DNA of 64,000 nt from Ignavibacteriota bacterium (GTDB taxonomy: Bacteria; Bacteroidota; Ignavibacteria; UBA10030; UBA6906), in the NCBI GenBank assembly GCA_963801355.1, contig CAWDEM010000008.1:2496001-2560000 (forward strand). Direction: 5' to 3'. Below the pieces are notes generated by a model. It did no database searches, was not told the DNA's origin, and saw only the letters and a program-made list of their open reading frames with translations. The number at the start of each line of letters is the position of its first letter. The stretch's first letter is position 1. The position numbers and the translations under genes were made by a program. This document shows, one piece after another, positions 2,670 to 20,946 of this stretch.

Positions 2670-2713
2670 CCACGCGACTCCGCCCGTCCCGTTCATCCGG
2701 AACCCTCCCGTCA

Positions 2714-3145
2714 ATGCGATCCCTGCTCCATGTCGCCGTAGTGCTGCTGTCGTGTGCTCTGCTATCCTGCAGCGAAGATGAACCTGCGACAGGGGTGCTG
2801 CAATTCACCGACAGGCTCACATTGGGCACGGGTGCAAATGCTTCGAACACCTCCCTGACGGGCGAAAGTTCTGCATTCATCAGCCTCGGGGGGGTTGCGG
2901 TTATCTACTGGCGACTCGAGTCAGCTGCGGAGCTCGACGGCGCGGGCGTGGCGTTGAAGATTGAGAAAAAGAGCGGGAGCAACTACACGCTCATAGGGAC
3001 GTACCCGAATGCCAGTCCCCATAACTACGGACATTTCGTCATTTCCTCCATCAGCCTGGCTGATGCCGGCACATTCCGCGCCACGGGATTGCTGACATCC
3101 ACGGCCACAGAAGTTGCATCGACGACGTTTACGGTACAGTGGTGA
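2714..3145 (+). CDS. Hypothetical lipoprotein
   Basis: MRSLLHVAVVLLSCALLSC lipobox-type signal followed by a beta-rich mature domain. Confidence 0.6.
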   Translation: MRSLLHVAVVLLSCALLSCSEDEPATGVLQFTDRLTLGTGANASNTSLTGESSAFISLGGVAVIYWRLESAAELDGAGVALKIEKKSGSNYTLIGTYPNASPHNYGHFVISSISLADAGTFRATGLLTSTATEVASTTFTVQW

Positions 3146-3233
3146 TCGCCGCGACACCGATCTGATGATCGCCGACGAATGCTCTCCCCTCGGCTTCACG
3201 TGTCAAAGATCTTGCCTTCCAGCCCTTCCCATA

Positions 3234-4235
3234 CTACTTCGCCATAATCATAAGCCGCGCGGCGGAATAGTCACCGGCAGTCAGACGGCAAAAGTAGACA
3301 CCCCCGGCAAGCCCGGTCGCATTGAATGAACGCGTGTGAAGACCCGCTGACAGCTCTTCGTCCACAAGCGTGGAGATCTCACGCCCCAGGGCGTCATACA
3401 CCTGTAACGTCACCCATCCTGCCTTCGGCAGCGAAAAGGCAATTTGCGTGGATGGGTTGAAGGGATTGGGATAGTTCTGATGCAACGCATACGCGGACGG
3501 AATACCGGTCGCCTGATCGCCCACCGCCGTGGAAGAATAGCGCGTGATCCGTACGTCGTCGACGCAGATCTTGTCGGAGTTCGATCCGTCTTCCCCTCCG
3601 TCGTACAGCAGATAGCGGAACGCAACATAGCGTGTCGTCCCCTGCGGAAGGAGCAAAGCCACGCGGGTCCATGCGCTCTTCGGAACATTCATATAGACAA
3701 GACGCGTGAAGCTTCCAACGGCTTTGTCCGTGGTGGACACTCTGACATCGAGAGAATCGGCATAGGAGCCGCTGGAAGAAAGCCGAGACACAGTCCAGAA
3801 GGTCAGGGAATCGACACTTCCGGCCGGGGCGGAACTGCCAGTGTTTGGCGTCACCAACCAATCATCCAGCAAGTACCCGTTTGAGGTGCCCCAATACGCC
3901 GCGGCACACGCGATCCCTTCAAACATCGGGAGTCCGACATCTCCGCCCACAACAAACGATTGATACCAGCACGTATCGCTCGGATCGGCCAAGGTGGTGG
4001 ACACGCCATGGTCATTGTTGATCATGGTCCACCCGGAGTTCAGGAACCAGGCGATTGTCGTGTCGTTGAAGCCTTCTTTGAAGATTTCGACGCCGGCATT
4101 GATCTCATTGGGCGCCGGATTGACAATGACCGGACCGGCCGAGGTCTTTTCTTTCCCCTGTTTCTGGGCGAGCCCTATTCCCGCGACGCACAAGACTAGC
4201 ACAAATACGGTAGCAAAGCGCAGCGCATTTTGCAT
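3234..4235 (-). CDS. T9SS-sorted protein with cleaved-adhesin/choice-of-anchor-J-like domain
   Basis: Signal peptide; GWTMINND, DDWLVTP, YVAFRY, ICVDDV pattern; CTD QNYPNPFNP...GVYFCRL...K. Confidence 0.8.
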   Translation of the reverse strand: MQNALRFATVFVLVLCVAGIGLAQKQGKEKTSAGPVIVNPAPNEINAGVEIFKEGFNDTTIAWFLNSGWTMINNDHGVSTTLADPSDTCWYQSFVVGGDVGLPMFEGIACAAAYWGTSNGYLLDDWLVTPNTGSSAPAGSVDSLTFWTVSRLSSSGSYADSLDVRVSTTDKAVGSFTRLVYMNVPKSAWTRVALLLPQGTTRYVAFRYLLYDGGEDGSNSDKICVDDVRITRYSSTAVGDQATGIPSAYALHQNYPNPFNPSTQIAFSLPKAGWVTLQVYDALGREISTLVDEELSAGLHTRSFNATGLAGGVYFCRLTAGDYSAARLMIMAK

Positions 4236-4271
4236 GGTACCTCCCGCGTAGAGTCGATGATGTGTAAGTTG

Positions 4272-4320
4272 TGATGAATTCCTTTCACAGAAGAATACAT
4301 GCCATACCGGGTAATGTCAA
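4272..4320 (-). promoter_or_regulatory. sigma70 promoter plus operator-like motif for the 3234-4235 gene
   Basis: Minus strand TTGACA (4315-4320), 17 bp, TATTCT (4292-4297); motif TGATGAATTCCTTTCA at 4272-4287. Confidence 0.7.
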
Positions 4321-4333
4321 GGTCTCTCTTTCA

Positions 4334-5335
4334 CTAGAATTCCAATGCCACCCCGAACCGGTGGACGGAGGGGAGGAGGTCGTACGATACAAAGGCATAA
4401 TCGAAGCCAACATGCAGACTGCCTGCGGGGACGGAAGCGCCCACACCCACCGACCACCTTGCCGTGTCGTCGCCAAACCTGTAGCCCCCACGGACAGAGA
4501 GACACTGCATGATTGTAGCTTCAATTCCCGCGCACACGAGTTCATCATTATCGTTCGGGTGGATGACGTCGGTCGCAAGGAGCACCGACAGTTCGTCGCT
4601 GATATAGGGCGACATGGAGAGTCCGACTTGGAAATGCAGCGGGAGGGGATATCCCTCAGCCTGAATCTGCGCCGGCAGCAGCCGCTCCGTGGAAATGGAC
4701 GAATTTGCGTCATAGTCCACTCCGAGATCTCTGCCCTCGAACGTGAGGTCGCCGCCGAAATTCGTGACGCTCATACCGAGCCGGAGATCCCTGAATCCAA
4801 TTTGGTAGAGGGTTCCGATGTCTACGGCAAGACCGCCGGCAGTCTCGTTCCAGATCCGCTGGTGGACATATTTCGCGGTGAGCCCGACGCTGAAGTCCTC
4901 GGTGAGTTTGCGCGCATAGCTGATCCCGAGCATGAGGTCCTGCGCGTCGAAAGACTGGCCGGAGGTCCCTTCGGGGTCGTCTTCCGTCGTTACCGCGATC
5001 TTGTCCATGGTCATCGACGTGAACGAGAGTCCGAAAGACCCTATTTCGCCGAACGATTGCACGTACGCGGCATGGTTCAACCGGCTCCCCGCCCACCACT
5101 CCTCGTGAGAGGCGATGAGGGCGCTGCCCTTCACTCCGATGGTGCCCGCCGGATTCCAGAAGAGCGCGCTCGCATCATCGCCGCACGATGTGAAGGCGCC
5201 GCCGAGGGCCGCCGCTCGTGCGCCCACGGGTATCTTCAGGAACTGCGCGCCAGCTGTTCCCAGGTTGGGGTTTTGAGCATGAAGCATCCCGACCGACAGG
5301 ACTGCAATCGCACAGCCAAGTGTAAGTCGTCTCAT
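4334..5335 (-). CDS. PorV/PorQ-like (UPF0164) outer-membrane barrel protein
   Basis: GTAGAQFLKIPVGARAAALGGA, DASALFWNPAG, terminal Phe; signal peptide. Confidence 0.85.
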   Translation of the reverse strand: MRRLTLGCAIAVLSVGMLHAQNPNLGTAGAQFLKIPVGARAAALGGAFTSCGDDASALFWNPAGTIGVKGSALIASHEEWWAGSRLNHAAYVQSFGEIGSFGLSFTSMTMDKIAVTTEDDPEGTSGQSFDAQDLMLGISYARKLTEDFSVGLTAKYVHQRIWNETAGGLAVDIGTLYQIGFRDLRLGMSVTNFGGDLTFEGRDLGVDYDANSSISTERLLPAQIQAEGYPLPLHFQVGLSMSPYISDELSVLLATDVIHPNDNDELVCAGIEATIMQCLSVRGGYRFGDDTARWSVGVGASVPAGSLHVGFDYAFVSYDLLPSVHRFGVALEF

Positions 5336-5345
5336 GGTCTACCTC

Positions 5346-7817
5346 CTACTTGATCACCGCGAATCGACCGAGCTTTTCCGCGGTGTCGGTCTTGACCAGG
5401 TACACGTACATACCGGCTGCGATCACCCTGTTCCCATCGGTGCGCAGGTCCCAGTTTTCGGTGCCTGTGGTGCCGTCGTGGGTGATGACTTTGATCTTGT
5501 CACCCGCCAAGGTGAAGATGGTAATGGTACAATGGGCGGGGAGATGGTTGAACTTCAACTGGCGTATCGGTTCCTTGCGCAGGACGCCGTATTCCCGCTC
5601 GTAGAGGGAGCCGACGAGATACGGATTGGGAACCACTTTGACGTTGTCCAGTTCATTGGCGCTGATGTCGGTACGTACCTCTACGGGGACTGTTGACACC
5701 ATGAATACATCAGTATAGGTAATCAGACTCGACGAGGAGTCGTTATCCCGCATGACGGCGAACACGATGCCGTCGTCCGTCGCGTAGTGCGTACCGTACC
5801 CAAAGGGGCGAAGGCTCAGGACCGTCGTCCCTCCCGTGGAGGCCACGACTCCGGGATGGATCAGAATGGAATCACCCGTTTCGGGTCTCGCATCTGCCAC
5901 GGAGGCCGTATCGGTCAGGAGGATTCGGAGTCCCGTTCCTCCCATCGTGATCGGCATCCCGGAGGTGTAGGGGCCTGAGGCCCTGATCACTTTCCCTGTG
6001 GTCAGGCTAAGGATAGAGTAGGTCGATGCGGATTTGAACACCAACGCATAGGTGCCGGGATCCGTTTTCACTCCTTCAACTGTTGTCAGGCTGATGATCG
6101 ACTGCAGATTTCCCTTTGCGACGGTGAAGGTGGGGGCAAAACCGATACTGTATTCCTTTCCACCGGCTCCGGGGATGTCAAGCTGCGAAACATCAAGCGT
6201 GACCTTTGCCGATCCGGAATGCGTGATAGTTGAGACCCGGGCCGGAGTTCTTCCTACCGCGCGTGACTCCGGAGTCGCCACGCCGACATTCTGTTCTTCT
6301 GCTGTATAGCCCAGGCTGCTTTCCAGGATCGTTTCATCACTTGTCATCGCATAGGCAGTCACCGAATACCAGTAGGTATAGCCGTTGATAAGAGAGGAAT
6401 CGACGTATGAATTTTGCAGGCCGGTGGATTTGTCAAAGGTCGCGAGCGGAACGGGATCGGATCCCGCCGAAGGGTTCGCGTTGCGATCAATCTGGTCCCA
6501 GTGCTGGCCGAAGTCCACGCTCTTGTACAGGCGGTAGCCCTGGAAGTTTATCTCGTGCGTGATGGGATCGCGTGAAGACTCCGCTGCGTTGTCCCATGTG
6601 ATGGTCGCGCGTCCATCCCCGGAAACAACGGTCACTGCAGGGGTGGTCGGTGCCTTTGGCGTGGCAAAATTGGCACGATAAAGGTCCCACGCATTGCTCG
6701 TGATGGCGTCCATTCCCGCGGCATCGATGGCGGCGATAAACGCCGTGACAAAATGGAGGGTGTCGCCCGGCGCCAGCGTGTAAGGCCCGGAGCCAATGCT
6801 CGACACCAGGTCAATTCCGGCCGATCCGATCGTGGCGGGATCGTCAATATGGATATTGGGCGCGTTTGCGCCGGGATGAAAGTACATTGGCCCGTACCGC
6901 GACGCATGGAGTGAAGGAGAACTCGAATAGATTCCGTATTGCACCGAATCGATGTCGATGTCGTCATCGTACCTCATGTAGTGAAGATCGGTGATGCCAC
7001 GCTGAACACCGTTGATCTCGGGAGTCCGCAGCATGAGGAAGCCGAATCTTCCCGACTGGCCGCCCCACTGCACGGACGTTCCGGCGTCAAGGTACACGAC
7101 CCGCTGCAAGGACTTGTCGAACGCCAGCCGGTCATTCGCGTAATCGACCGCGCTCTCCGACCCGCCGATATCGGGGTCGATATACATGCCAAAATAGACG
7201 TTGTCGTAGGTGTTCTGCGACTTGTTCACGATGTCGAAGCAGTAAATGACCATATCGCGAATGGATTTGGCCCCGAACGCGTATCCCGTTTGATTCACCT
7301 GGATACCGAGGATGCCTTTGCTGTTGGTCGAATCGTTGTAGACGCAATAGCTGTCCTGGCTCGATACGAACACCGGGCTTCCGTCCGCCGCCTTGACAGG
7401 CCATCCGGTGGCCGGCCAGCTGTAGGGTTTGTCGCTCATGGCCACCGTAGCACTGTCGATATTGTTGTACCCCGCGGCCGCCTCCCATTCCTCATTTGTG
7501 GTGAAGCGTCCCTGGATCATATTTCCAGGGATGCCGACGTACGGATTTGCCCGATACACGTATTCGTGCTGACTCTTAATCGGCCATTCGAAGGTTGGGC
7601 CGAGAGCTACAAAGTGAGGATACAATTTCCCGCGATTCTCAAATGCCGATCCCATGTTGCTGCGATTGTGGTTTCCTCCCCCGCGGCTCAGCATGCCGGT
7701 GGTCTTGGCGAGCACGGCCGAAGTCGAAGACTTCGGCCCCCGTTTTTGTGCGGGTGCGGGTACGACCGAGACCAATATTCCCGCAAGAAGGCAGACAACG
7801 AAAGCGCTTCGCATCAT
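5346..7817 (-). CDS. Large secreted protein with FN3-like domain and VVPNPY-type C-terminal sorting domain
   Basis: Signal peptide from MMRSAF; GDGRATITWD...FQGYRLYKS...YWYSVTAY FN3-like segment; CTD VKVVPNPY...WDLRT...GMYVYLV...FAVIK. Confidence 0.75.
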   Translation of the reverse strand: MMRSAFVVCLLAGILVSVVPAPAQKRGPKSSTSAVLAKTTGMLSRGGGNHNRSNMGSAFENRGKLYPHFVALGPTFEWPIKSQHEYVYRANPYVGIPGNMIQGRFTTNEEWEAAAGYNNIDSATVAMSDKPYSWPATGWPVKAADGSPVFVSSQDSYCVYNDSTNSKGILGIQVNQTGYAFGAKSIRDMVIYCFDIVNKSQNTYDNVYFGMYIDPDIGGSESAVDYANDRLAFDKSLQRVVYLDAGTSVQWGGQSGRFGFLMLRTPEINGVQRGITDLHYMRYDDDIDIDSVQYGIYSSSPSLHASRYGPMYFHPGANAPNIHIDDPATIGSAGIDLVSSIGSGPYTLAPGDTLHFVTAFIAAIDAAGMDAITSNAWDLYRANFATPKAPTTPAVTVVSGDGRATITWDNAAESSRDPITHEINFQGYRLYKSVDFGQHWDQIDRNANPSAGSDPVPLATFDKSTGLQNSYVDSSLINGYTYWYSVTAYAMTSDETILESSLGYTAEEQNVGVATPESRAVGRTPARVSTITHSGSAKVTLDVSQLDIPGAGGKEYSIGFAPTFTVAKGNLQSIISLTTVEGVKTDPGTYALVFKSASTYSILSLTTGKVIRASGPYTSGMPITMGGTGLRILLTDTASVADARPETGDSILIHPGVVASTGGTTVLSLRPFGYGTHYATDDGIVFAVMRDNDSSSSLITYTDVFMVSTVPVEVRTDISANELDNVKVVPNPYLVGSLYEREYGVLRKEPIRQLKFNHLPAHCTITIFTLAGDKIKVITHDGTTGTENWDLRTDGNRVIAAGMYVYLVKTDTAEKLGRFAVIK

Positions 7818-7852
7818 GGTCTTCTCTTGAATAATCAGCAAAGGTTGCATGG

Positions 7853-10315
7853 TTAGAATCTCAGGCGCGCACCGATGCGCATCCGGCGCGGCGGGCCGTA
7901 GTTGCTCGGATCCTGCATGTACTCCAGGGAATGCCCCCCGTCATAGGTCACATCCGGCTCGCCAGTATCGGTCCAGACGTACACCACGTTTTTCGCGTTC
8001 GTCAGGTTGAGGACTTCAATAAACACTTCAAGGGACAAGGGGGCAATTTTCCACGCTTTGCTGGCCTCCAGATCGATCGAAAAGGTCGGCGGCATGCGTC
8101 CGGAATTCTTCGGAATGTAGTTGCTCCTCCGTGCCGACGGCGTGTAGGGTTCTCCGCTGGCAGCCTTCACCAGAACATCCCACGTGGTGTTTTCCAGCGG
8201 TCGAAGTCCCAGCAGTGAAGGGCCCTCACCCTCGGGAATGCCGACGATCAGGTTCATGTTGAACATGTGTGTCCGGTCCCAGTTGAGCGGATACAGCAAT
8301 GTCGACTTGGTGGTCCCGGGATAATCTTCCTGCTCCGAAGAAGCGCTCCCTTTGGCCACCGAGTAGGTATAGGTGATCATGCCTCCCACATAGCCGACGC
8401 GGCGCATGTTCAGCCGGACTTCGAACGATTTGATGTTGGCATACGCTTCGTTCACGTAGATTGTATAGGCAACGTATCTTCCGCCGGCGTAGGGGTAGTA
8501 GTACTGCGTCCCGATCAGACCGGTGACATCCTTGTATGCCGCCGTGAAGGATCCCGAAAGGGCGTCGGTGAATTGATGGCTGACGCCGACTTCATAGGCC
8601 GTGGTGCGTTCAGGATTCAGATCCGGTTGGCCAAAAAGCGGTTCCTTGACAGCGATGTCATACTGAGAGTTTTCAAACAGCCGCAGGTAATCAGGGTTCT
8701 GGAAAAAACGGCCGTAGGAAAAATGAAGCGATGTCCGATCACTGATCGGGTGGGCAACTCCGAGGCGCGGGCTCCATTGTTGTTTCGGCTGGGACTGGAC
8801 TATTGAGGTCGGATCAAGCGGATTCGATCGGAATGGCGAGCGCTGATTCGCGTAGTCGTAGCGGAGACCAAGGTTTACCACCAGGGCGGAGAGCGAAATT
8901 TGATCCTGCACATATGCCGAACCTTCGAGCGGCTTCTGTTGGAATGAAGTGATGTACGGATTCACCCTTTTGGGGTCGTACACGTCAAGAAAATCGAGTG
9001 TGTGTTTCTTGAATTCAAATCCGGCACGGATTTCGTTCCACGTGTCCGCCTGCCAGGTCGCGTCGCCCTTGATATCAATTGTGGTGGTGGCATTCTTTGT
9101 CAACTCGACCGGGTCCTCCAGCGAATAGAACTCATGACCGTTGCCGGCGCTGCTGACATATTCGTATGAGCCGACAGGGATGTATTGCGAGGTGTCCTTG
9201 TCGACGCCGGAGTAGTACGACTGTGAGAAGTAGGAGACGCGGAGGTCGTAGAAGAATGACGGAGAGACGGTATGCGTGATGCCGAGAATTCCCTGGCGAC
9301 TCATCTCGCGCACGCGCAGGTACTGCTCGGGAATGTATTTCCACCTGTGGTTGTACGGACGGTTGTCCTCGTCGGTGTACCGCCATGTGAGAGTGGTCTT
9401 CACCGACGAAAGGGGCCGCGCGGAGAGCTTGCTGATCAGCGATATGGTCTTGTCCGAGCCGAAGGGAAGCCAACTTCCGCGGGCATCACGTTCGCCGCTC
9501 AGGTAGAACCCGAGATCATCGCCGAATATCGGTCCGCTCAGCGATCCCGTGTACCGGTTCTCGTGATAGGTGGAAAAGGGCTTCACAAGGAAATCGCTGG
9601 TGCGACCTTCAAGGAAGCTCGAGAACGATTTACCTCCCTCCTTTGTGACGATGTTTACGACGCCGCTCATGGCACCGCCGTATTCAGCGTTGAACGTCCC
9701 GCTCATCAACAGGAGTTCGGATATCGCGTCGTTGTGGATCGTGGTCCCGCGGGAGCCGAGGACCGGGTCCTTGACATACATCCCGTCGATCAGATACGCC
9801 ACTTCGTTGCTCCTCCCGCCGCGAATATAAAGGGTGTTACCCGAACCGGCCACGCCTGCCTGAAGAGCGAGCACCTCGGCGAAGTCCTTCGCCGGCAGCT
9901 GGGAGATCTGTTCGCTGCTGACCACTACCACAGACGCCGTCGCGTCCCGCTGGAAGGGAGGTGCGACGGCCTGGACGACAACCTCATCCATGTCGACCGT
10001 CGATGGGGCGCACTGTATGTCGATGGTCGTGGTCCGGTCCAACTCGACCCTCACGTTTTTGATGGACGTGGTTGCGTATCCGATCAACGTGACGCGCAGA
10101 TCATAGGCTCCCGGCGGAATGTTGAGGATGAAGTATGTTCCGTCGGGCCCCGTTGAGCCACCGAGGCGTGTGCCCACAACGGTGACATTCGCTCCGGCCA
10201 GCGGCTCTCCGCGGCCCCGTTCGGTCACCGTGCCGGCGATCTTCCCCGTCGTTCCGGCAAAGAGCGTGGTGCAGAACAGCGCTGCCGCCCAGGTCAGGTG
10301 AAGGAGAGACTTCAT
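7853..10315 (-). CDS. TonB-dependent receptor
   Basis: N-terminal GKIAGTV...GANV carboxypeptidase-regulatory-like domain; plug IRGGRSNEVAYLIDG and FNAEYGGAMSGVVNIVTK; LNPERT; C-terminal RIGARLRF. Confidence 0.93.
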   Translation of the reverse strand: MKSLLHLTWAAALFCTTLFAGTTGKIAGTVTERGRGEPLAGANVTVVGTRLGGSTGPDGTYFILNIPPGAYDLRVTLIGYATTSIKNVRVELDRTTTIDIQCAPSTVDMDEVVVQAVAPPFQRDATASVVVVSSEQISQLPAKDFAEVLALQAGVAGSGNTLYIRGGRSNEVAYLIDGMYVKDPVLGSRGTTIHNDAISELLLMSGTFNAEYGGAMSGVVNIVTKEGGKSFSSFLEGRTSDFLVKPFSTYHENRYTGSLSGPIFGDDLGFYLSGERDARGSWLPFGSDKTISLISKLSARPLSSVKTTLTWRYTDEDNRPYNHRWKYIPEQYLRVREMSRQGILGITHTVSPSFFYDLRVSYFSQSYYSGVDKDTSQYIPVGSYEYVSSAGNGHEFYSLEDPVELTKNATTTIDIKGDATWQADTWNEIRAGFEFKKHTLDFLDVYDPKRVNPYITSFQQKPLEGSAYVQDQISLSALVVNLGLRYDYANQRSPFRSNPLDPTSIVQSQPKQQWSPRLGVAHPISDRTSLHFSYGRFFQNPDYLRLFENSQYDIAVKEPLFGQPDLNPERTTAYEVGVSHQFTDALSGSFTAAYKDVTGLIGTQYYYPYAGGRYVAYTIYVNEAYANIKSFEVRLNMRRVGYVGGMITYTYSVAKGSASSEQEDYPGTTKSTLLYPLNWDRTHMFNMNLIVGIPEGEGPSLLGLRPLENTTWDVLVKAASGEPYTPSARRSNYIPKNSGRMPPTFSIDLEASKAWKIAPLSLEVFIEVLNLTNAKNVVYVWTDTGEPDVTYDGGHSLEYMQDPSNYGPPRRMRIGARLRF

Positions 10316-10325
10316 GGTTGGACCT

Positions 10326-11207
10326 CTACTCAGTGAAGTAGTGCCCCGCCTGGCGAAGAAGATCTTCCGTCTTTCTGAGGTTGTCGGTGGCCCGGTGCTT
10401 GCTGCGCAGGGCGACCTCTGTGGTCAGAGCGTTGATCAGGACGGAGATGGCGGAGATGGAGTTGGTGAAGAGCAGATTCTGACTGGCAATCGGCAGAACC
10501 GCTCTGCTGACGAAACAGACGGGTGATGTCACCCGATCGGTCACAGCTACCACTGGAATGCCTCTCGATGCGAGAGCCTGCGCCGTGTCAATCGTCTCGC
10601 GGGAATAGGGCTGGAACGAAAAGGCGACGGCGACGTCCGACGGGCTGACCTGATGAATCTGTTCAAAAAACGTCTCGTGCTCGTGGGCAAAGGGCGTCGA
10701 GCGCACCGCGACCTGATTGAGCGAATACGAGAGCACTCTCGCCAGCAACGAGGAGATGCCCAGACCGAACGTGTAGACGTGGGCAGCCTTGAGGAACATC
10801 TCTGACACCCGGACGAAAACCGCACGATCGATCTGGGTGATGGTCTGATTGATGTTCTTCACGTCCTGCTGCGCTACGGCCGTGAGGGTCTCTTCGTCGC
10901 TCTCTCCCGACAGCAGCGGATATGTTTCGGCGCCTGAGATCTCTGATTGGGCGCCTTCGCGCACCCGCTCCCGGAGCTCGAGGTATCCGGAGAAACCCAG
11001 GCTTTGGGCGAGCCGGACGACGGTCGCCTTGCTCGTCCCACTCAGGTCCTCCAGATTGATCACCGACAGGAAGGGCACCTCCCGGATGCGCTGAAGCAGC
11101 ACGTCAGCCACCTTGCGCTGATTCTCCGGGAGGTTGGGATAAGCAGACTGAACGATAAACGGGAGATCGATCGGAGCTTCCCGTTCCTTTTTAGCCTTTC
11201 GCGCCAT
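10326..11207 (-). CDS. MurR/RpiR family transcriptional regulator
   Basis: HTH SKATVVRLAQSLGFSGY plus SIS domain (FGLGISS, FSFQPYSRET, VAVTD). Confidence 0.92.
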   Translation of the reverse strand: MARKAKKEREAPIDLPFIVQSAYPNLPENQRKVADVLLQRIREVPFLSVINLEDLSGTSKATVVRLAQSLGFSGYLELRERVREGAQSEISGAETYPLLSGESDEETLTAVAQQDVKNINQTITQIDRAVFVRVSEMFLKAAHVYTFGLGISSLLARVLSYSLNQVAVRSTPFAHEHETFFEQIHQVSPSDVAVAFSFQPYSRETIDTAQALASRGIPVVAVTDRVTSPVCFVSRAVLPIASQNLLFTNSISAISVLINALTTEVALRSKHRATDNLRKTEDLLRQAGHYFTE

Positions 11208-11212
11208 TGCGA

Positions 11213-13150
11213 TTATTTCTGCAGTACCATCTTTGTTGTCGACACAAATGATCCTGCCATAAGCCTGCAGAAGTACACCCCACTGGCCAGCCGGCTGCCG
11301 TCAAATCTGAACGAGAATTGTCCCGCTGGATAGTCTCCATCGGCCAGGATGGCAACTTCACGGCCAAGCAGATCGCAGACAATCAGTTTCACGTGGCCGG
11401 CAACCGGCCACTGACAGTTGACCACTGTCGACGGGTTGAACGGGTTGGGATAATTTTGCCGGAGCGCGAATCCTTCCGGTACGCCGAGGCTCACCTGCTC
11501 GACCGACGTAGAGAGGTTATACCTCTGAACTGCCGCATCGCTCACCGTGCGGAGGCCTTCGAGGCTTGTGCTGTACAGGTACGCTACCGTGTACGCAACT
11601 GAGCCCTTTGCAGCAATCGTCTCGGTTCCAAAATTGAGGTTGAAGAACGAGCCGTTGACCCCTGCCACGATGGGGGCATCGAACCCGGGAAGAGCCGTCA
11701 TACGCCAGCGGGTCGAATCAGTCGCCGCGTCAGCGTTCGCGTCCGTGGGGGAATACACGTCCCAGTCGAGCGCATGGAAGGAAACCGGATCCCGACCGAT
11801 GATCTTTACGCCGGTATACGGTGTTTCACCCTGCCGGAAGAAATACGCCATCTTCTTCGTGGCATCATACGCCACTGTCTCGCCCCCATAGGTCTCGGAG
11901 GGTTCGGGCACGCACCCCATGCCGATGTGCACCGTGCTGGCCGCCGCTGAGTAGTTTGTGATGGTATAGTCCACAAGAACGAACGGGTCGTTCTTCCACG
12001 CGTGGACCCCTCCGAGAACGCGGACGTCCGGAGGGGCGGGCGGATCCTGCCACGAATTGTCGAACAGCGCCGTCGCGACTGTATCGGCCGCCCCGCCGAT
12101 GGAGAGGGCAGCCGACGTCATGACATAGTACGCGTCTTCCTCATAGTCGAACACGTGGGCGGAATCAAGCCCGATGACGAGCGACGCACGACCCAACTGC
12201 GTATAGAAGTCTTTGTCGTAGAGCGCCAAGCTGCCGGCCCTGTTCAACTTGAACCTGACGTTGCCCGTCCCACCGTAGACGTTCTTCACAGCCGACGCGG
12301 CCAGTAACTTGGCATAGCGCTGCTCCGCCGAATCACTCATCGCGCGGAGGCCTTCGAGGCTTGTGCTGTACAGGTACGCTACCGTGTACGCAACTGAGCC
12401 CTTTGCAGCAATCGTCTCGGTTCCAAAATTGAGGTTGAAGAACGAGCCGTTGACCCCTGCCACGATGGGGGCATCGAACCCGGGAAGAGCCGTCATACGC
12501 CAGCGGGTCGAATCAGTCGCCGCGTCAGCGTTCGCGTCCGTGGGGGAATACACGTCCCAGTCGAGCGCATGGAAGGAAACCGGATCCCGACCGATGATCT
12601 TTACGCCGGTATACGGTGTTTCACCCTGCCGGAAGAAATACGCCATCTTCTTCGTGGCATCATACGCCACTGTCTCGCCCCCATAGGTCTCGGAGGGTTC
12701 GGGCACGCACCCCATGCCGATGTGCACCGTGCTGGCCGCCGCCGAGTAGTTTGTGATGGTATAGTCCACAAGAACGAACGGGTCGTTCTTACTTGCGTAC
12801 ACGTTTTCGATGACTCGGGCATCCGGAGGAGGGGGTGGATCCTGCCATGAATTATCGAACAGCGCCGTTGCGACCGTGTCGGCCTTTCCTGCCGACGAGA
12901 GAATGACCGAGGTGGTGAGATACATTGCATCTTCCTCATAGTCGAACACGTGCGCGGAATCAAGCCCGATGACGAGCGACGCACGACCCAACTGCGTATA
13001 GAAGTCTTTGTCGTAGAGCGCCAAGCTGCCGGCCCTGTTCAACTTGAACCTGACGTTGCCCGTCCCACCGTAGACGTTCTTCTGTGCCAACATGCAGGTC
13101 GGGAGCAACAAGACCGCCATGAGAGAAAGTGTAACAAAGGTTCGATTCAT
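11213..13150 (-). CDS. T9SS-sorted protein made of a tandemly duplicated ~265 aa domain
   Basis: AGGAGG RBS before ATG 13150 (MNRTFVTLSL signal peptide); two repeats starting KNVYGGTGNVRFKLN; CTD QNYPNPFNP...GVYFCRL...K. Confidence 0.85.
   Translation of the reverse strand: MNRTFVTLSLMAVLLLPTCMLAQKNVYGGTGNVRFKLNRAGSLALYDKDFYTQLGRASLVIGLDSAHVFDYEEDAMYLTTSVILSSAGKADTVATALFDNSWQDPPPPPDARVIENVYASKNDPFVLVDYTITNYSAAASTVHIGMGCVPEPSETYGGETVAYDATKKMAYFFRQGETPYTGVKIIGRDPVSFHALDWDVYSPTDANADAATDSTRWRMTALPGFDAPIVAGVNGSFFNLNFGTETIAAKGSVAYTVAYLYSTSLEGLRAMSDSAEQRYAKLLAASAVKNVYGGTGNVRFKLNRAGSLALYDKDFYTQLGRASLVIGLDSAHVFDYEEDAYYVMTSAALSIGGAADTVATALFDNSWQDPPAPPDVRVLGGVHAWKNDPFVLVDYTITNYSAAASTVHIGMGCVPEPSETYGGETVAYDATKKMAYFFRQGETPYTGVKIIGRDPVSFHALDWDVYSPTDANADAATDSTRWRMTALPGFDAPIVAGVNGSFFNLNFGTETIAAKGSVAYTVAYLYSTSLEGLRTVSDAAVQRYNLSTSVEQVSLGVPEGFALRQNYPNPFNPSTVVNCQWPVAGHVKLIVCDLLGREVAILADGDYPAGQFSFRFDGSRLASGVYFCRLMAGSFVSTTKMVLQK
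11549..13082. repeat. Intragenic direct repeat, 2 x 739 bp, period 795 bp
   Basis: 11549-12287 matches 12344-13082 almost base for base, except a divergent patch (about 11996-12134 vs 12791-12929). Confidence 0.95.
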
Positions 13151-13161
13151 CGTTCCTCCTG

Positions 13162-14553
13162 TTAATGATAGTGGAACAGAAAGGGGGGTATGAGAAGCAA
13201 TAATGCAAGGACAAAGAAAAATACCTGCACTGGAAGCATCCATTTGAACCAGCGTTCCCACGGGATTCCGGCGAGTCCGAGCACGCCCATCGTGACCCCC
13301 GACGTCGGAAGGATTGGATTGATCCACCCCTCGCCGAACTGGAACGCAAGCACCGCCGTCTGCCGGGAAATCCCCACGACATCCGCCAGCGGGGCCATCA
13401 CCGGCATCGTCAGCGCGGCCTGTCCGGAGCCGGAATGCACGAAGAAATTGATGATCCCCTGCGTCACAAACATCGCCTGCGCCGCAAGAATCGGGTGCAA
13501 ACCGGATATCATATTCGCCAGTCCGTACAGCATGACATCCAAAATCTTCCCGTCCGTCGCCACCACAAGAATAGCGCGCGCGCACCCGATGATGAGTGCA
13601 ACCCCCACCATATCCCGGGCCCCTTCCTTGAAGGCATCCGCCGTGGCTGAGACCGAAAGACGGCCCAGAGTCCCCCCGGCAATACCCAGCCCGAGGAAGA
13701 GCCCGGCAATTTCATTGATGTACCACCCGAATTTCAACACGCCCACAACGAGAAAAAGCATTGCCGCGCCGAACAGACCAAGCACAAGACGCTGCGGCAC
13801 CGTCATGCCCGGCTGGGGCGTCCCGGACAGATGCAGGCTGCCCTTCCGTTCACAATCCAGGTCGTACACCGGACTCTGCTCCGGAGATGCTTTGATCTTC
13901 CGTGCATACAGCGCGACAAAGGTGATCATGCAGGTGGTGCTGATGACCCAGATGATCATACGGTATTCGATACCTGAATAGAGGGGGAGTTCCGCAATCC
14001 CCTGCGCAATGCCGATGGTAAACGGGTTCAACACCGCGCCGGCGAATCCCGCCGCCGCCCCCAGGAAAGGGATCGCCGTACCCACAATGGAGTCATAGCC
14101 GAGAGAGAGCGCAAGCGGGATGAAAATAAGCACAAACGGCATCGTTTCCTCACACATCCCGAACACCGCTCCGCCGAGGGAAAAGATGGTCATCGTGACG
14201 GGAATAAAGAACTTCTGGAGGCGCGGGCGACGGGCAAAGGTGAATGCCATCGACTGGACCGCGGTGGTGACCGCACCTGTCTTCTCCAGCACTTTGAACG
14301 TTCCGCCGATAAGGAATACAAACGCGATGATATGGGCCGCTTCGATGAACCCCTTCACCGGCGAAATGAGAAGCGCCCCGATGCCTTGCGGGTTACTCGG
14401 GACTTCCGTAAAAGATCCGGGCACCACGAGCGTTCTGCCGTCTTTCACCTGGCGGGTGTAGCTCCCCCCGGGCAGAACCCACGTCGCCGCCGCCACGAGG
14501 GCGACGACGGAAAAAATCATCACCAGCGTGTGAAAATGAAACGACAGTTTCAT
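13162..14553 (-). CDS. YfcC/DcuC-like membrane transporter (basic amino acid/dipeptide antiporter family)
   Basis: HTLVMIF...TWVLPGGSY, GMCEET, NPFTIGIAQGIAELPLYSG, SGSGQAALTMP, AFQFGEG; many TM helices. Confidence 0.88.
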   Translation of the reverse strand: MKLSFHFHTLVMIFSVVALVAAATWVLPGGSYTRQVKDGRTLVVPGSFTEVPSNPQGIGALLISPVKGFIEAAHIIAFVFLIGGTFKVLEKTGAVTTAVQSMAFTFARRPRLQKFFIPVTMTIFSLGGAVFGMCEETMPFVLIFIPLALSLGYDSIVGTAIPFLGAAAGFAGAVLNPFTIGIAQGIAELPLYSGIEYRMIIWVISTTCMITFVALYARKIKASPEQSPVYDLDCERKGSLHLSGTPQPGMTVPQRLVLGLFGAAMLFLVVGVLKFGWYINEIAGLFLGLGIAGGTLGRLSVSATADAFKEGARDMVGVALIIGCARAILVVATDGKILDVMLYGLANMISGLHPILAAQAMFVTQGIINFFVHSGSGQAALTMPVMAPLADVVGISRQTAVLAFQFGEGWINPILPTSGVTMGVLGLAGIPWERWFKWMLPVQVFFFVLALLLLIPPFLFHYH

Positions 14554-15476
14554 GGAATGCCCCTTCGCCGGAGGGGCACGAGCCGGCGCATGTCATAGCG
14601 ATCACCGTCGAGAAGGATGTCCATGCGCACGCCGTCGGCACCCAGGTTACCTTCCGTGTCATTGTGGATGTTCACCGCCCGGGATGCATCGAGTATCATG
14701 ACGCTTCCCTTCCCCGCCACCCGGAAGGTGCTGTCGGGTGCGACGATCACCGCCGTTGCCTCATCTATGCCGATGCCCACATGTGGTGCATGCTCCAGGA
14801 CGACGCTGATCAACCGGTTCATCCGTTTCCGCCGGATGAAATGCTGATCCACGATCACGGTCGTGAGTAATCCCAGCCCCTCCGTGACCACAACGTTGTC
14901 CCGTTTGATGAACACGAACCCGTTCACGGAATCACGGTTCAACTTCTCGTCTCCGGTCAGCATGACGGCACTCATGACGGCCGCACCCGCACTGGTGCCG
15001 CCGATCACCGCCCCCGAGCGGTACAACGCTTTCAGCTTGCCCTGCACCGGCGTTCCCACGAGTTCCTTTGTGATGCGCGATTGGTCCCCGCCGGTGAAGT
15101 ACACCCCCGTGACGCCGTTGAACTCGTCGAGAATGCCGGGGGACATTGCCTGTTCGCGCGTGATGAAAAGCGACCGTGCGCTCCCCACGCCCAACCCGTG
15201 GAACTCTTCTGCCATTTCACGCCCGGTCGTGTCCCCATCGCCGCTGGCCATGGGCAGAATGAGTATGGATGCGTGCGCGGGCCCGCCGGCCAGGCGCACG
15301 TATTCTTTCATGAGGTCGGGGCTGCGGTGACCGCCCCCGATAATAAAGAGATGCCCGCCCCTGGGCCCCCCGCCTGCCGCTGGACCCGAGAGACCGGCAA
15401 GGAGCAGAAGCATGCTGAAGACGACAGCACCCTGGTGACGGATGAAATTCCCCGGGCGGTTGTCAGACGTTCTCAT
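14550..15476 (-). CDS. cphB: Cyanophycinase (peptidase S51) with N-terminal signal peptide
   Basis: LFIIGGG, ILPMASG, FTGGDQSRI, nucleophile GTSAGAAVMS, IVDQHFIRRKRMNRL, GIGIDEATA; hydrophobic leader VVFSMLLLLAGLSGPAAG. Confidence 0.88.
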   Translation of the reverse strand: MRTSDNRPGNFIRHQGAVVFSMLLLLAGLSGPAAGGGPRGGHLFIIGGGHRSPDLMKEYVRLAGGPAHASILILPMASGDGDTTGREMAEEFHGLGVGSARSLFITREQAMSPGILDEFNGVTGVYFTGGDQSRITKELVGTPVQGKLKALYRSGAVIGGTSAGAAVMSAVMLTGDEKLNRDSVNGFVFIKRDNVVVTEGLGLLTTVIVDQHFIRRKRMNRLISVVLEHAPHVGIGIDEATAVIVAPDSTFRVAGKGSVMILDASRAVNIHNDTEGNLGADGVRMDILLDGDRYDMRRLVPLRRRGIP

Positions 15477-16581
15477 CGGGTGCCCTCTGGATCAGGTCGT
15501 GAGCGATCGCATAGGCGTTCGCAAAATCCCCGAGCAGGATAAATTCGTCTTTGCCGTGCGGATTCTGCGCTCCGACCCCGAGATTGACAGCCGGGAGATT
15601 TTTGGCGTTGAGCATGTTTGCATCGCTGCCGCCGAGATACTCGATCGGATCCGGCACCAGCCCGAGCCGTCGCAGCACAGTGCACGCGCGCCGGAAGACC
15701 GGGGCATCAGACGAGAGTGTGAAGGGAGGGAAATCCACTGCGCTCTGTATTTCCACGGTCGACTGAAACTCACGGCCGGTGGCTTCGAAGAGCGCAGTCA
15801 TATCGCCCAGGTACGCGTCGATCTCCCCGGGCAGAAATGAGCGCACTTCGCCTTCGATGCAGCAGCTGTCGGGGACGACGTTGGTCGCGGTGCCGCCTTT
15901 GATGATGCCGACGCTGGCGGTCATCTTGGGCGCCAGCCGCCCGATACGCATCCGCGCGATCGCGTGGGCGGCCATCTGGATCGCGTTGATGCCTTTCTCC
16001 GGAGCCACCCCCGCATGTGATGCCCGGCCGTGAAATGTCGCCGTGTACACAGACGAGCCGACACACGATTGGATGAACGTCCCGGGCCGCCGCGAGCAGT
16101 CAAAGATATACGCCATCCTCGCGTTGAACGGCGACAGGTCGACGTGCCTGGCACCCCACATGCCCAGCTCCTCCGCAACGGTAAAAACCACCATGGCGTT
16201 GCCCAGCGGTTGCGTTGTTGCGGTTGAACGCAGCGCGTGCAGGAGGATGCTCACGCCCGCACGGTTATCCACACCGAGGATCGTGGATCCGTCACCGGTG
16301 ATGCGATCGGAGGCAACGACCGGGCGGACGCCCGCGGTCGGCGAGGGGGTGTCAAGATGAGCAAACAACACGGTCGCAGGCAGATCCGGGGAAAACGTGT
16401 GCGGCACACAGATCAGGTTGCCGCACCCCGTTCCCAGTACTGATGCAGCATCATCCTCGACAATCCTTACCGGCAGTCCTGACAGCTTCTCCCGGACGAA
16501 GGCAGCCATGGGCGCCTCATGGAGCGACGGCGCGTCAACCCGGACTGCCTCCAGGAACAGCTCCACCAGCGGTGAGAGCAT
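15463..16581 (-). CDS. M20 family metallopeptidase (peptidase T-like)
   Basis: AHLDT, GVDNRAG, AEELG, HAGVAPEKGINAI, GGTATNVV, GGSDAN, QNPHG; no signal peptide. Confidence 0.9.
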   Translation of the reverse strand: MLSPLVELFLEAVRVDAPSLHEAPMAAFVREKLSGLPVRIVEDDAASVLGTGCGNLICVPHTFSPDLPATVLFAHLDTPSPTAGVRPVVASDRITGDGSTILGVDNRAGVSILLHALRSTATTQPLGNAMVVFTVAEELGMWGARHVDLSPFNARMAYIFDCSRRPGTFIQSCVGSSVYTATFHGRASHAGVAPEKGINAIQMAAHAIARMRIGRLAPKMTASVGIIKGGTATNVVPDSCCIEGEVRSFLPGEIDAYLGDMTALFEATGREFQSTVEIQSAVDFPPFTLSSDAPVFRRACTVLRRLGLVPDPIEYLGGSDANMLNAKNLPAVNLGVGAQNPHGKDEFILLGDFANAYAIAHDLIQRAPDENV

Positions 16582-16610
16582 GGGAAAGGGTTTCCAGAAG
16601 AGAGGTGTTA

Positions 16611-16659
16611 TGAGAAATTCTTTTCAGCAGAATATACGTCCGGTCCAGGGCAATGTCAA
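16611..16659 (-). promoter_or_regulatory. sigma70 promoter plus operator-like motif heading the 16581-4334 operon
   Basis: Minus strand TTGACA (16654-16659), 17 bp, TATATT (16631-16636); imperfect palindrome TGAGAA-attc-TTTTCA at 16611-16626 over the predicted TSS. Confidence 0.75.
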
Positions 16660-16700
16660 GCTCTCTCTGCAGCACGCAAACCGCGCGAAGCACGCCGCCC

Positions 16701-17855
16701 TTATCTGAATGTCATGGTGATTTCTACGATTTCCGGACTGTTGCCGGTTCTTACCGGGGGGCCCCAGGTACCGGCGCCGCTGGAAACGTAGTAATGCGTC
16801 GAGCCTTTCAGGAGATACCCCCAGCTGATTTCGTATATGGCCGACGTGATGTAATTGAATGGCCAGAGTTGCCCATGATGCGTGTGCCCCGAAAGTTGCA
16901 GGTCAACACCATGGGCTGCCGCCTCGTCCAGGTCGAATGGTTGATGATCCATCAGTATAAGCGGGGCGCGCGCGTCAACACCATCCAGCACTGCATCAAG
17001 TGACTTCCGCGCCTCCCCCCCGAATTGCCTGCTGCTGCGGTCCTGCCTCCCGGCAAGCAGGATGCCCCCATCGATTGCCACACAGGTATCCCTCAGCATG
17101 CGTATCCCGTGTGCTTCCAGGTATGCGCACGCCTTCTCCGCGCCGCCGATATATTCGTGATTCCCCGTGATGCCGTAGACGCCTCTGGGTGCCCTGATCG
17201 AAAGGAGTGTTTCACCGAGATTCTGCCGCAGCACGGGCCCGAGATCCTCATCGACGACATCACCCGCAAAGAGAACGAGGTCCGGACGGAGTTCATTGAT
17301 GCGATCCACAAGGCGTGCGAGGTGCTTCTTGCCAACGATCGTACCCAGATGCACGTCGGAGATCATCACCGCGCGGAGGGAATGGATGCCCTGCGCCTGC
17401 TTGTCGACAGTCACAGACAACCGCTGGATACGAGGCGTTCTGGCATTCCAGTATCCTCCCGCAAGCACCACCATCACGAGCGCGACAACCCCGAGCGTGC
17501 CAATCTGGCGCACCCGGACCGGATCGCCCATAGCGGGCATCGGAATGGGGAGGATCAGCAACACGAGACGCACAAGGTCAACTGCCAGGCAGGCAAGGAC
17601 AAAATAGGCCAGCGCAGCAAGCCAGAACGAGCCAATCCAGACAAACAGGTCACTGACCGCGGAAATCCAGTAGTTCTCCAGCACCCGGCCGATGATGAAC
17701 GAGAGGGAAACAACAGCGAACAGCACGGCGTACCATGTGCGCAGAGATGTCGATGCGGGCAGAGCCTGCCACCCACGGAAAAAGACATACGCATTGACAC
17801 TGAAATAGACCGTGAAGAACACGAGGAAGAAAGTCAGCATGAGGTGCTTTCGCAT
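16701..17855 (-). CDS. Membrane-anchored metallophosphoesterase (calcineurin-like, YkuE-type)
   Basis: N-terminal TM helices; SDVHLG, GDVVD, GNHE, DHQP, SGHTHHGQ. Confidence 0.9.
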   Translation of the reverse strand: MRKHLMLTFFLVFFTVYFSVNAYVFFRGWQALPASTSLRTWYAVLFAVVSLSFIIGRVLENYWISAVSDLFVWIGSFWLAALAYFVLACLAVDLVRLVLLILPIPMPAMGDPVRVRQIGTLGVVALVMVVLAGGYWNARTPRIQRLSVTVDKQAQGIHSLRAVMISDVHLGTIVGKKHLARLVDRINELRPDLVLFAGDVVDEDLGPVLRQNLGETLLSIRAPRGVYGITGNHEYIGGAEKACAYLEAHGIRMLRDTCVAIDGGILLAGRQDRSSRQFGGEARKSLDAVLDGVDARAPLILMDHQPFDLDEAAAHGVDLQLSGHTHHGQLWPFNYITSAIYEISWGYLLKGSTHYYVSSGAGTWGPPVRTGNSPEIVEITMTFR

Positions 17856-17877
17856 TATGGACTGATTCGGGTGGGGG

Positions 17878-20691: not shown

Positions 20692-20751
20692 TCTTTGTCA
20701 ATGAATATACGCAATTTCCTCCAAATGGTTTAGAAACGCAGATTTATGGGG

Positions 20752-20779
20752 TGTTGAATATTTCAACAGTGAGCACTCA
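20752..20779. promoter_or_regulatory. Two adjacent palindromes (putative operators) in the divergent intergenic region
   Basis: TGTTGAA-tat-TTCAACA (20752-20768) and TGAG-ca-CTCA (20770-20779). Confidence 0.45.
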
Positions 20780-20946
20780 ATAAGGAGAGCTGATGAGAAG
20801 TTTTTGGTGCATCTCGTTTTTTGATTCTGTAGGTTTGTTGTCACCATCCTATCCGGCAGTCCGCAGTGAATTCGCTTTACCCCTGAGGGTTACGAAAGGC
20901 CGCTAGGTTCTCCAGCTGTTCATGTACCATCAAGAAAGGAAGAGCT

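Follow-up and report, generated by a model that had tools for sequence, protein, structure and literature searches.

Here we describe a nine-gene locus of an Ignavibacteriota bacterium (GenBank assembly GCA_963801355.1; genome 4.8 Mb, 100% complete) and propose that it probably forms an operon, repressed by an RpiR-family regulator, for the uptake and stepwise digestion of exogenous oligomers derived from cyanophycin, (beta-Asp-Arg)n. The locus lies on the minus strand at positions 3234-16659 of a 64,000-nucleotide (nt) stretch of contig CAWDEM010000008.1 (positions 2,496,001 to 2,560,000), hereafter the window. An initial annotation, made from the letters of the window, had read these genes as a full scavenging route for cyanophycin, laid out like a polysaccharide utilization locus (PUL) and aimed at a nitrogen polymer. 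We infer the substrate, every transport step, the specificity of the M20 peptidase and the effector of the regulator. In order of transcription, the genes are as follows.

16581-15463 (-): M20 peptidase; Pfam M20 and M20_dimer
15476-14550 (-): S51 cyanophycinase, short form without a type IX secretion system (T9SS) tail; TIGR02069
14553-13162 (-): YfcC/DcuC-family inner-membrane permease; PF03606
13150-11213 (-): T9SS type-A cargo protein, 645 amino acids (aa); TIGR04183, 28.4 bits
11207-10326 (-): RpiR/MurR-family regulator; HTH_6 and SIS (Pfam, NCBIfam)
10315-7853 (-): TonB-dependent receptor; N-terminal CarboxypepD_reg domain, plug and barrel (Pfam)
7850-5346 (-): 834-aa surface protein; zero matches in Pfam and NCBIfam
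5335-4334 (-): PorV/PorQ-family barrel; NF033709, 197.9 bits against a cut-off of 90
4235-3234 (-): choice-of-anchor-J protein with a T9SS type-A C-terminal domain (CTD), the ninth gene; NF038128 70.3 bits, TIGR04183 32.0 bits

The tight packing of eight co-directional genes noted in the initial annotation holds for all named genes: from the M20 peptidase to the barrel, neighbors overlap by 14 nt and then by 4 nt, followed by gaps of 11, 5, 10, 2, and 10 nt (coordinates of open reading frames, ORFs), and the barrel is separated from the ninth gene by 98 nt. The cargo ORF is open from 13585, with the signal-peptide start at the methionine at 13150 in the translation, and the true start of the 834-aa protein is probably M12 or M13 (7817 or 7814). 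Terminator-like sites are as frequent in the region as in shuffled sequence (17 versus 16.4) and are therefore uninformative on the limits of the operon.

The assignment of the substrate begins with the S51 protein. It scores 179.5 bits against the cyanophycinase equivalog TIGR02069 (cut-off 126.6), is the sole gene of the genome over that cut-off, and matches the solved cyanophycinases 7uqv (E 6e-32) and 3en0 (E 1.3e-25) with the GGDQ, GTSAG, DQHF, RxRxxR, and GIDE motifs aligned. Nine positions are identical to 3en0_A by phmmer: Gln101, Ser132, Asp172, Gln173, His174, Arg178, Arg180, Arg183, and Glu201 (numbered with a chain offset of 20, derived from the 3en0 alignment and checked on the catalytic Ser132). 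These are the Ser-His-Glu triad and the pocket residues, which are reportedly the functionally critical ones in 3EN0. With the cyanophycinase cut-off passed and the triad and pocket kept, a PepE-type enzyme is unlikely. Full-length orthologs (~283 aa) start with leaders of the MKK-hydrophobic-AQ type, and the protein of the window has a basic-then-hydrophobic N-terminus as judged by inspection of the sequence; together these agree with the signal peptide given in the initial annotation. By family, then, the S51 protein is a predicted exported cyanophycinase.

The genome that carries this enzyme has no cyanophycin synthetase gene (cphA) over the cut-off (best score 130.7 bits versus 850), which extends to the whole genome an absence that the initial annotation had reported for the window. 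In a sample of 201 genomes of the class, a cyanophycinase exceeds the cut-off in 30 and cphA in 10, all 10 of which are among the 30. A higher-scoring cphB lies within ~2 kb of cphA in nine of these 10 genomes, and the other 20 cyanophycinase genomes, the host included, have no cphA. Producer-type and scavenger-type enzymes thus form separate sets in the sample.

The neighborhood of the S51 gene is conserved as well. Across 41 related genomes, a search with S51 gave a match in 15, including 13 of the 24 within the same family (host genome excluded), and one region was examined for each of the 13 genomes with a strong match. Eight of these regions hold the full set in the same order, and a ninth does so with its receptor gene interrupted; three are cut by contig ends and agree as far as they reach, and the last is a short contig from another family with an S51 gene that lacks these neighbors. 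A second survey, an alignment search of species-representative genomes with the 834-aa protein, yielded 79 loci from the best 80 of 583 confirmed matches, which are the closest relatives by construction. Where at least 8.4 kb of upstream sequence was available (61 loci; S51 counted at 35% identity or more), the receptor is found in 59, RpiR in 59, S51 in 58, M20 in 58, the T9SS cargo in 57, and YfcC in 53, and receptor, RpiR, S51, M20, and YfcC occur together in 51 of the 61. The barrel is directly downstream of the large protein in 71 of 71 loci with enough downstream sequence. These counts argue against a chance gene neighborhood and bear out the synteny expected from the initial annotation, in that the genes have stayed together, and in the same order, throughout the class. 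The locus is, as far as its sequence and that of its relatives can indicate, a real and class-wide operon, presumably under the control of a repressor. A search for sequencing runs containing positions 6700-16699 listed no RNA run, and the best DNA run had a share of 0.20.

Two of the related loci depart from the common layout. In one same-genus genome (G004), M20, S51, and YfcC each match in two or three frames, and the frame breaks may be pseudogenes or assembly errors. In another genome (G023), the receptor gene is split by a ~4 kb insert carrying T9SS-tailed genes.

Many relatives also encode a second, divergent S51 (24-30% identity), which is located 3' of the barrel in 35 of the 56 loci that have 4.5 kb or more of downstream sequence. 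In one locus (L074), this second S51 is 615 aa long and bears a T9SS CTD, and the next gene encodes a 500-aa M14 peptidase; matches of the other copies to it extend over the whole protein and cover the tail. The serine, histidine, and three arginines are retained in this long form; in the alignment, the Gln173 column holds Thr and the Glu201 column holds Tyr. Neither a TIGR02069 scan nor tblastn recovered a long, T9SS-exported S51 in the host genome, and the only M14 match of the genome (36% identity) is ~28 kb past the end of the window, so the linked M14 is missing at the locus. Lacking an exported long S51, the host probably depends on soluble or pre-digested cyanophycin.

The regulatory sites of the locus point to a single design. 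Their positions are as follows.

16659-16631 (-): promoter P1, TTGACA-17-TATATT; 11 of 12 consensus matches
16611..16626 (-): operator O1, TGAAAAGAATTTCTCA, directly 3' of the -10 box; presumed RpiR site
16583..16595 (-): possible second, weaker operator, GGAAACCCTTTCC, read from the sequence; overlaps the ribosome-binding region of the M20 gene
14537..14552 (-): palindrome TGAAACTGTCGTTTCA, at the S51 stop and YfcC start
4320-4292 (-): promoter P2, TTGACA-17-TATTCT; 10 of 12 consensus matches; operator TGAAAGGAATTCATCA at 4287-4272

P1 and P2 are the two top sigma-70-like promoters within 2500-21500, and P1 is the best of all, in agreement with the one strong promoter of the initial annotation. 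The matching promoter and operator that it had assigned to the ninth gene are likewise confirmed: a 16-nt motif, TGAAARGAATTYMTCA, follows both promoters on their 3' side and occurs at these two sites of the window and nowhere else in it (0.11 expected), and P2 with its operator aligns position for position with P1 as well as with the promoters of the M20 gene in three relatives. To survey this arrangement more widely, we compared the 100 nt before the M20 start at 67 distinct orthologous loci with mononucleotide shuffles, using the pattern TGWAA-N5-7-TTWCA with at most one mismatch. TTGAC is kept in 64 of the 67 upstream regions; the palindrome is present in 64 (shuffle mean 8.3, maximum 17), and at least two palindromes are present in 50 (shuffle mean 0.49, maximum 4). 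The GGAAACCCTTTCC copy of the window fails the one-mismatch rule of this survey. In low-GC relatives the operator takes the form TGTAAT-N4-ATTACA, compared with TGAAAAGAATTTCTCA in the window. These results support a gene set that shares one predicted promoter and operator design across the class.

The sole regulator in the locus is the RpiR protein (PF01418 53 bits, PF01380 60.2 bits; no NCBIfam equivalog is reached), which we presume to bind and repress both P1 and P2; the operator abuts the -10 box, a position expected for a repressor. The palindrome TGAAACTGTCGTTTCA is the sole zero-mismatch TGWAA-N6-TTWCA among eight window sites (16 strand-wise matches). It fits the operator consensus better than the promoter-proximal site does and may be an internal operator or looping site.

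The matching control of the ninth gene is explained by the mosaic history of the locus. M20, S51, and YfcC share 75-86% identity with three same-genus genomes (G001, G003, and G004) and 55-71% with a genome of another genus (G017), whereas the genes from the cargo through the barrel show the reverse, with 42-62% identity to the same-genus genomes and 72-83% to G017. Three further loci (L068, L069, and L071) resemble G017 in that their cargo-through-barrel genes are 69-86% identical. On either side of the locus, the flanking sequence is collinear with that of the same-genus genomes. This split in identity between collinear flanks indicates that a cassette from another genus took the place of the outer-membrane half. 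In G003 and G004, a choice-of-anchor-J gene is found between YfcC and RpiR, and the ninth gene is 68% identical to this position-4 gene in G003 and 57% (tblastn) to 62% (blastp) identical to that of G004. On the evidence of these comparisons, the choice-of-anchor-J gene has here been moved behind the barrel and carries a copy of the operon promoter and operator, and the displaced gene kept its co-regulation.

Within the outer-membrane half, no SusC/SusD-type pair was found. The receptor scores 79.1 bits against the SusC/RagA model TIGR04056 (cut-off 368), over its N-terminal part only, and the nine proteins have zero SusD-family matches in Pfam and NCBIfam, as the initial annotation had stated. 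The cargo and the choice-of-anchor-J protein have CTDs over the TIGR04183 cut-off of 23, and the 834-aa protein has no TIGR04183 match. Likewise, the barrel belongs to the NF033709 subfamily and falls under the cut-offs of the equivalogs PorQ (102.7 versus 220 bits), PorV (58.7 versus 250), and PorV2 (70.8 versus 325).

The predicted structure of the 834-aa protein (mean predicted local distance difference test, pLDDT, 79.6) comprises a supersandwich N-domain (residues 57-397), FN3/Ig-like domains, and a C-terminal domain (731-834). In an exhaustive structural search with the model, the N-domain best matches the N-domains of GH15, GH94, and GH65-type enzymes (Z 17.6 over 237 residues), and the tail best matches the CTD of PorZ (5m11; Z 11.5, root-mean-square deviation 2.6, 86 residues, 33% identity). 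A Foldseek search with the whole model returned FN3 tandem arrays only (TM ~0.1) and was uninformative on the N-domain. When residues 21-333 of the barrel were modeled in complex with residues 700-834 of the 834-aa protein, the interface score ipSAE had a median of 0.90 (0.89, 0.90, and 0.90), compared with 0.00 for the highest-scoring control among three; at least 85% of contacts are common to the runs, and the pLDDT of the partner is 70. Among reference cases, 58 of 80 solved complexes attain this mark, as do 2 of 110 mismatched pairs, and the assemblies of PorV and PorQ with such tails already solved mean that this pass may show likeness rather than proof. On these models, we presume the barrel to be the private anchor of the 834-aa protein through its PorZ-like tail. 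Three segments of the 834-aa protein (26-65, 78-86, and 743-761) are highly conserved in 50 orthologs and modeled with pLDDT below 50; examples are R56, G59, H61, and the loop P741-N742-P743-Y744...E760-P761-R763. These segments may become ordered only when bound to a partner, which could be the receptor or the barrel.

The T9SS cargo consists of a signal peptide, two tandem units of ~265 aa, and the CTD. The units are identical at 236 of 255 residues, with the differences clustered at unit positions 52-97 and 100% identity outside that ~45-residue patch, which suggests that the units were recently duplicated, or made alike by gene conversion, and have diverged in a single surface patch. A two-domain cargo (679-705 aa) is also found in four other loci (L046, L068, L069, and L071), and most other relatives have one domain (~370 aa). 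The unit is modeled with pLDDT 91.1 as a beta-supersandwich that matches the GH15 N-domain of 1lf6 (Z 21.9, 231 residues, root-mean-square deviation 3.1), and Foldseek agrees. Profile comparison by hhalign aligns it with the N-domain of the 834-aa protein over 267 columns (probability 96.9%, E 1.9e-10). The two are homologous, and the cell surface thus carries three copies of one domain family, an arrangement that resembles a lid plus accessory binders. Searches of the ESM Atlas with the cargo domain and with the 834-aa protein found only unnamed clusters labeled "hypothetical protein".

The host can plausibly export these proteins through T9SS, since its genome encodes the SprA/Sov translocon (846.7 bits versus a cut-off of 200) and tblastn with the T9SS tail gives very many matches. 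It also contains 21 PorV/PorQ-family genes over the cut-off, and at 14 of 22 barrel loci found by tblastn a protein with an 834-like tail is immediately upstream and a same-strand gene for a TonB-dependent receptor lies 2.4-3.7 kb upstream. With 14 such triads in one genome, receptor, large protein, and barrel form a generic, multiplied module that is not peculiar to the locus. The best-scoring PorV-family gene (295.7 bits; C8:981556-982560) lies outside the window, ~11 kb from sprA/sov (C8:964217-970747), and probably represents the housekeeping PorV, as opposed to the ~20 private barrels beside receptors.

The two remaining enzymatic and transport functions are assigned at family level. The M20 protein scores 218.7 bits against TIGR01883 (peptidase T-like; cut-off 274.25), and its best PDB match is the PepT-like 3gb0 (E 1.9e-62); a distant match is 7ljh (E 4e-13), titled as a poly(aspartic acid) hydrolase. 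The metal and catalytic set H75, D77, D105, E137, E138, D161, and H342 is invariant in 29 of 29 aligned orthologs, and the listed orthologs have no signal peptide. The gene occupies the place of an isoaspartyl dipeptidase (iadA or iaaA), neither of which is in the cluster, and its product is a candidate cytoplasmic hydrolase of beta-Asp-Arg. In the rest of the genome, IadA was not found (best 22.5 bits versus 331), nor was an AstE/CphZ-type gene, and two unlinked Asparaginase_2 (IaaA-type) genes are present, the nearer ~50 kb before the start of the window. The initial annotation had named cphA, iadA, and iaaA as the genes to look for in the genome; two are absent and the third has these two relatives elsewhere. 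The missing signal peptide fits its placement of the M20 peptidase at the cytoplasmic step. The permease matches PF03606 (DcuC) at 334.4 bits (cut-off 23.1) and NF008611, "putative basic amino acid antiporter YfcC", at 376.9 bits, under the cut-off of 500, and is a candidate importer of beta-Asp-Arg. A link of YfcC to the arginine-ornithine exchanger ArcE, for which our literature searches found no paper, is not used as evidence here.

Taken in sequence, these parts suggest the following route. The supersandwich domains of the cell surface, in the T9SS cargo (duplicated here) and in the 834-aa protein, would bind the substrate, with the 834-aa protein held beside the transporter by its private PorQ-like barrel via the PorZ-like tail. 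The TonB-dependent receptor would import soluble oligomers, the exported short S51 would cut them to beta-Asp-Arg in the periplasm, the YfcC/DcuC permease would carry the dipeptide into the cytoplasm, and the signal-less, di-zinc M20 peptidase would split it into Asp and Arg. RpiR would bind the TGAAA-N6-TTTCA-type palindrome overlapping the promoter and would control the displaced ninth gene through the copy of this site. The predicted compartments support such a route, with an exported S51, a cytoplasmic M20, an outer-membrane receptor, and surface proteins delivered by T9SS. The full scavenging route of the initial annotation thus keeps its gene set, compartments, and promoter, and it is not full for the insoluble polymer, with the long S51 and the linked M14 missing.

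Several observations count against this proposal. YfcC is missing from eight of the 61 loci. The M20 peptidase falls under the cut-off of the PepT-like model and belongs to none of the three known families of beta-Asp-Arg hydrolases, and the two unlinked IaaA-type genes could perform the beta-Asp-Arg hydrolysis step, so M20 need not be the hydrolase. Without the long S51, nothing in the host genome is predicted to cut insoluble granules extracellularly. Both surface domains have a galactose-mutarotase-like supersandwich fold, familiar chiefly from glycoside hydrolases and phosphorylases, where it forms the N-domain; a glycan or glycopeptide would suit it no less than a polyamide, although the fold alone shows no function. 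Finally, the SIS domain of characterized RpiR/MurR proteins usually senses sugar phosphates, and a peptide-derived effector would be unusual.

The last two points lead to the main rival explanation, which retains the import-and-digest operon and changes its substrate to an aspartyl- or isopeptide-rich peptide, a glycopeptide, or cell-wall material, with an S51 of altered specificity and a regulator that senses a sugar phosphate. We regard it as unlikely, and yet as an explanation to be weighed with care. Beyond the SIS domain of RpiR and the carbohydrate-active associations of the supersandwich, it can draw on the weak match of S51 to PDB 6nqc, a "cyanophycinase-like exopeptidase" (E 8.2e-8), on the Thr and Tyr that the long S51 of relatives has in place of the Gln173 and Glu201 residues, and on the generalist nature of M14 and M20 peptidases. 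However, the S51 of the locus scores above the curated cut-off for cyanophycinases, with the nine residues of triad and pocket all intact; the nearest named model of the permease is a basic amino-acid antiporter; and none of the nine genes encodes a glycoside hydrolase, lyase, or sugar kinase (Pfam, NCBIfam). A fold shared with carbohydrate-active enzymes, as noted, does not identify a substrate.

A second alternative, which we consider improbable, is that the cell scavenges dipeptides only, taking up free beta-Asp-Arg or small Arg/Asp peptides released by the extracellular cyanophycinases of others, and that its surface proteins have no role in the capture of polymer. The host genome, which has neither an exported long S51 nor a linked M14, is compatible with such a habit, and many bacteria have the dipeptide step alone and have been suggested to rely on their neighbors (PMC9974463). 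A periplasmic cyanophycinase would be pointless, though, if dipeptides alone entered, and three copies of the surface domain, a receptor, and a private anchor are conserved alongside S51. Lastly, turnover of the cell's own cyanophycin store, which membership of S51 in the cyanophycinase family and the cphA-cphB pairs of same-class producers might bring to mind, deserves almost no credence, since an endogenous storage role is contradicted both by the absence of cphA, from the host and from all 20 genomes of the class that have a cyanophycinase with no adjacent synthetase, and by an exported S51 linked to outer-membrane uptake genes.

The uptake and digestion of exogenous cyanophycin oligomers, our preferred reading, has precedents. 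The cyanophycin locus of Salinivirga is reportedly PUL-like, with SusC/SusD character, and is said to have been so described by Ben Hania and colleagues in Environmental Microbiology (19:1134) in 2017. A cyanophycin utilization locus in Salinivirga cyanobacteriivorans L21-Spi-D4, dated to 2017, is cited in the paper by Sharon and Schmeing, the only one that our literature search for such loci returned, which interprets cyanophycinase-dipeptidase clusters in cphA-less genomes as scavenging clusters (PMC10206079). A pair of plain and Por-tailed S51 proteins is reported for S. cyanobacteriivorans and a Balneolaeota isolate in a further paper (PMC6243061). The Ignavibacteriota locus fits this pattern in that a cyanophycinase shares one predicted operon with a receptor and a YfcC permease in a cphA-less genome. 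As in Salinivirga, a cphA-less scavenger clusters its cyanophycinase with a dipeptide hydrolase and a transporter, and the plain and Por-tailed S51 pair is present in the Ignavibacteria relatives (not in the window). Unlike that of Salinivirga, our locus has M20 rather than IadA, a YfcC permease, and RpiR with its operator; the exported S51 is missing, and in place of SusD and a SusC/RagA-type receptor there is a receptor of another type, a partner with a PorZ-like tail, and a private PorQ-like barrel.

Comparable steps are known individually from other systems. The known beta-Asp-Arg hydrolases are CphZ, IadA, and IaaA (PMC9974463), and the same paper provides experimental precedent for an arginine transporter that imports beta-Asp-Arg. 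The aot operon and CphZ of Pseudomonas aeruginosa, together with IadA and IaaA, share with our proposal dipeptide uptake and cytoplasmic hydrolysis in non-producers (PMC9974463, PMC10206079); they differ in using an ATP-binding cassette (ABC) transporter rather than DcuC/YfcC, and an M14-like (CphZ), amidohydrolase (IadA), or Ntn (IaaA) enzyme rather than M20, and our locus adds an outer-membrane stage and its own cyanophycinase. At the outer membrane, Tang et al. (2012) proposed cyanophycin as a substrate of a TonB-dependent transporter from a gene neighborhood of Citromicrobium sp. JLT1363 (PMC3400609). This is an alphaproteobacterial neighborhood of two genes, unlike our locus in having no T9SS parts, regulator, permease, or dipeptidase.

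The outer-membrane trio itself recalls two further systems. Like SusC/SusD (RagA/RagB), it places a TonB-dependent importer beside a substrate-specific surface partner in a locally regulated operon, and the module is multiplied in the genome (here, 14 triads). In contrast to SusD, the partner is a multi-domain beta protein rather than a TPR-type lipoprotein, is presumably anchored non-covalently by a 14-strand-type barrel rather than by lipid, and likely serves a polyamide substrate. For Porphyromonas gingivalis, a published proposal is that PorQ picks up PorZ at the translocon and remains associated with it (PMC10947112). PorQ-PorZ and PorV-PorU of the P. gingivalis T9SS attachment complex (PMC10947112, PMC5562754) each pair a barrel with a T9SS-exported protein that keeps its CTD, an arrangement predicted for the pair described here as well; this pair differs from them in lying outside the secretion machinery, as one of ~20 private barrels that each stand beside their own cargo and receptor.

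Overall, the concept of cyanophycin utilization is already published, and the parts in which this locus differs are M20, YfcC, RpiR with its operator, the PorZ-tailed partner with its private barrel, and the shared supersandwich domain. The PUL-like character described in the initial annotation, including the lack of SusD, is retained; the idea of such a locus for a nitrogen polymer was known, and the outer-membrane trio is generic. What is new is the homology of the surface supersandwiches, the docking model of PorZ-like tail and barrel, the conserved operator, the replacement of the outer-membrane half, and the absence of the long S51 and M14. Our literature searches found no paper linking cyanophycin with YfcC, although the supplementary gene-cluster tables of PMC10206079 and PMC9974463 might list M20 or YfcC neighbors. 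Nor did they turn up a paper that connects Ignavibacteria with PorV and TonB-dependent receptors, or one that reports this locus from Ignavibacteria.

A broader and more tentative suggestion, which we hold to be possible and rather doubtful, is that Ignavibacteria replace the SusD lid with a T9SS-exported, barrel-held partner whose supersandwich N-domain sets the choice of substrate. The present locus would then be the first such module aimed at a non-glycan polymer, with a free-standing paralog as accessory binder and an RpiR that senses a peptide-derived signal, and M20 would be a fourth unrelated family of beta-Asp-Arg hydrolases after IadA, IaaA, and CphZ. Receptor, T9SS-delivered partner, and private barrel, a combination described in no paper we found, would widen the PUL concept beyond SusC/SusD and sugars. 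For enzymology, M20 is a candidate family for the last step of cyanophycin degradation, and for regulation, RpiR and its operator form a testable pair. Bench testing may be feasible, as the loci include contigs of metagenome-assembled genomes labeled Ignavibacterium album and Melioribacter roseus. Cultured strains of both species exist. When cyanobacteria and other producers lyse, their cyanophycin becomes a rich supply of nitrogen and carbon open to the whole community, and a class-wide, tightly regulated uptake operon would make Ignavibacteria dedicated consumers of it; many non-producers have been suggested to feed on cyanophycin (PMC9974463).

Finally, the surroundings of the locus hold several further features. 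Upstream of the operon are a Metallophos phosphoesterase (16701-18050) and a PDZ-GAF-SpoIIE phosphatase (17878-20691), which are syntenic in same-genus genomes and outside the conserved locus elsewhere. A FadL/Toluene_X-family outer-membrane channel (20947-22209, plus strand; 218.8 bits) points away from the locus. Three more large ORFs with T9SS-type C-terminal domains, found by tblastn with the CTD, are located at 22349-26083, 55254-57797, and 57847-60651, all on the minus strand.

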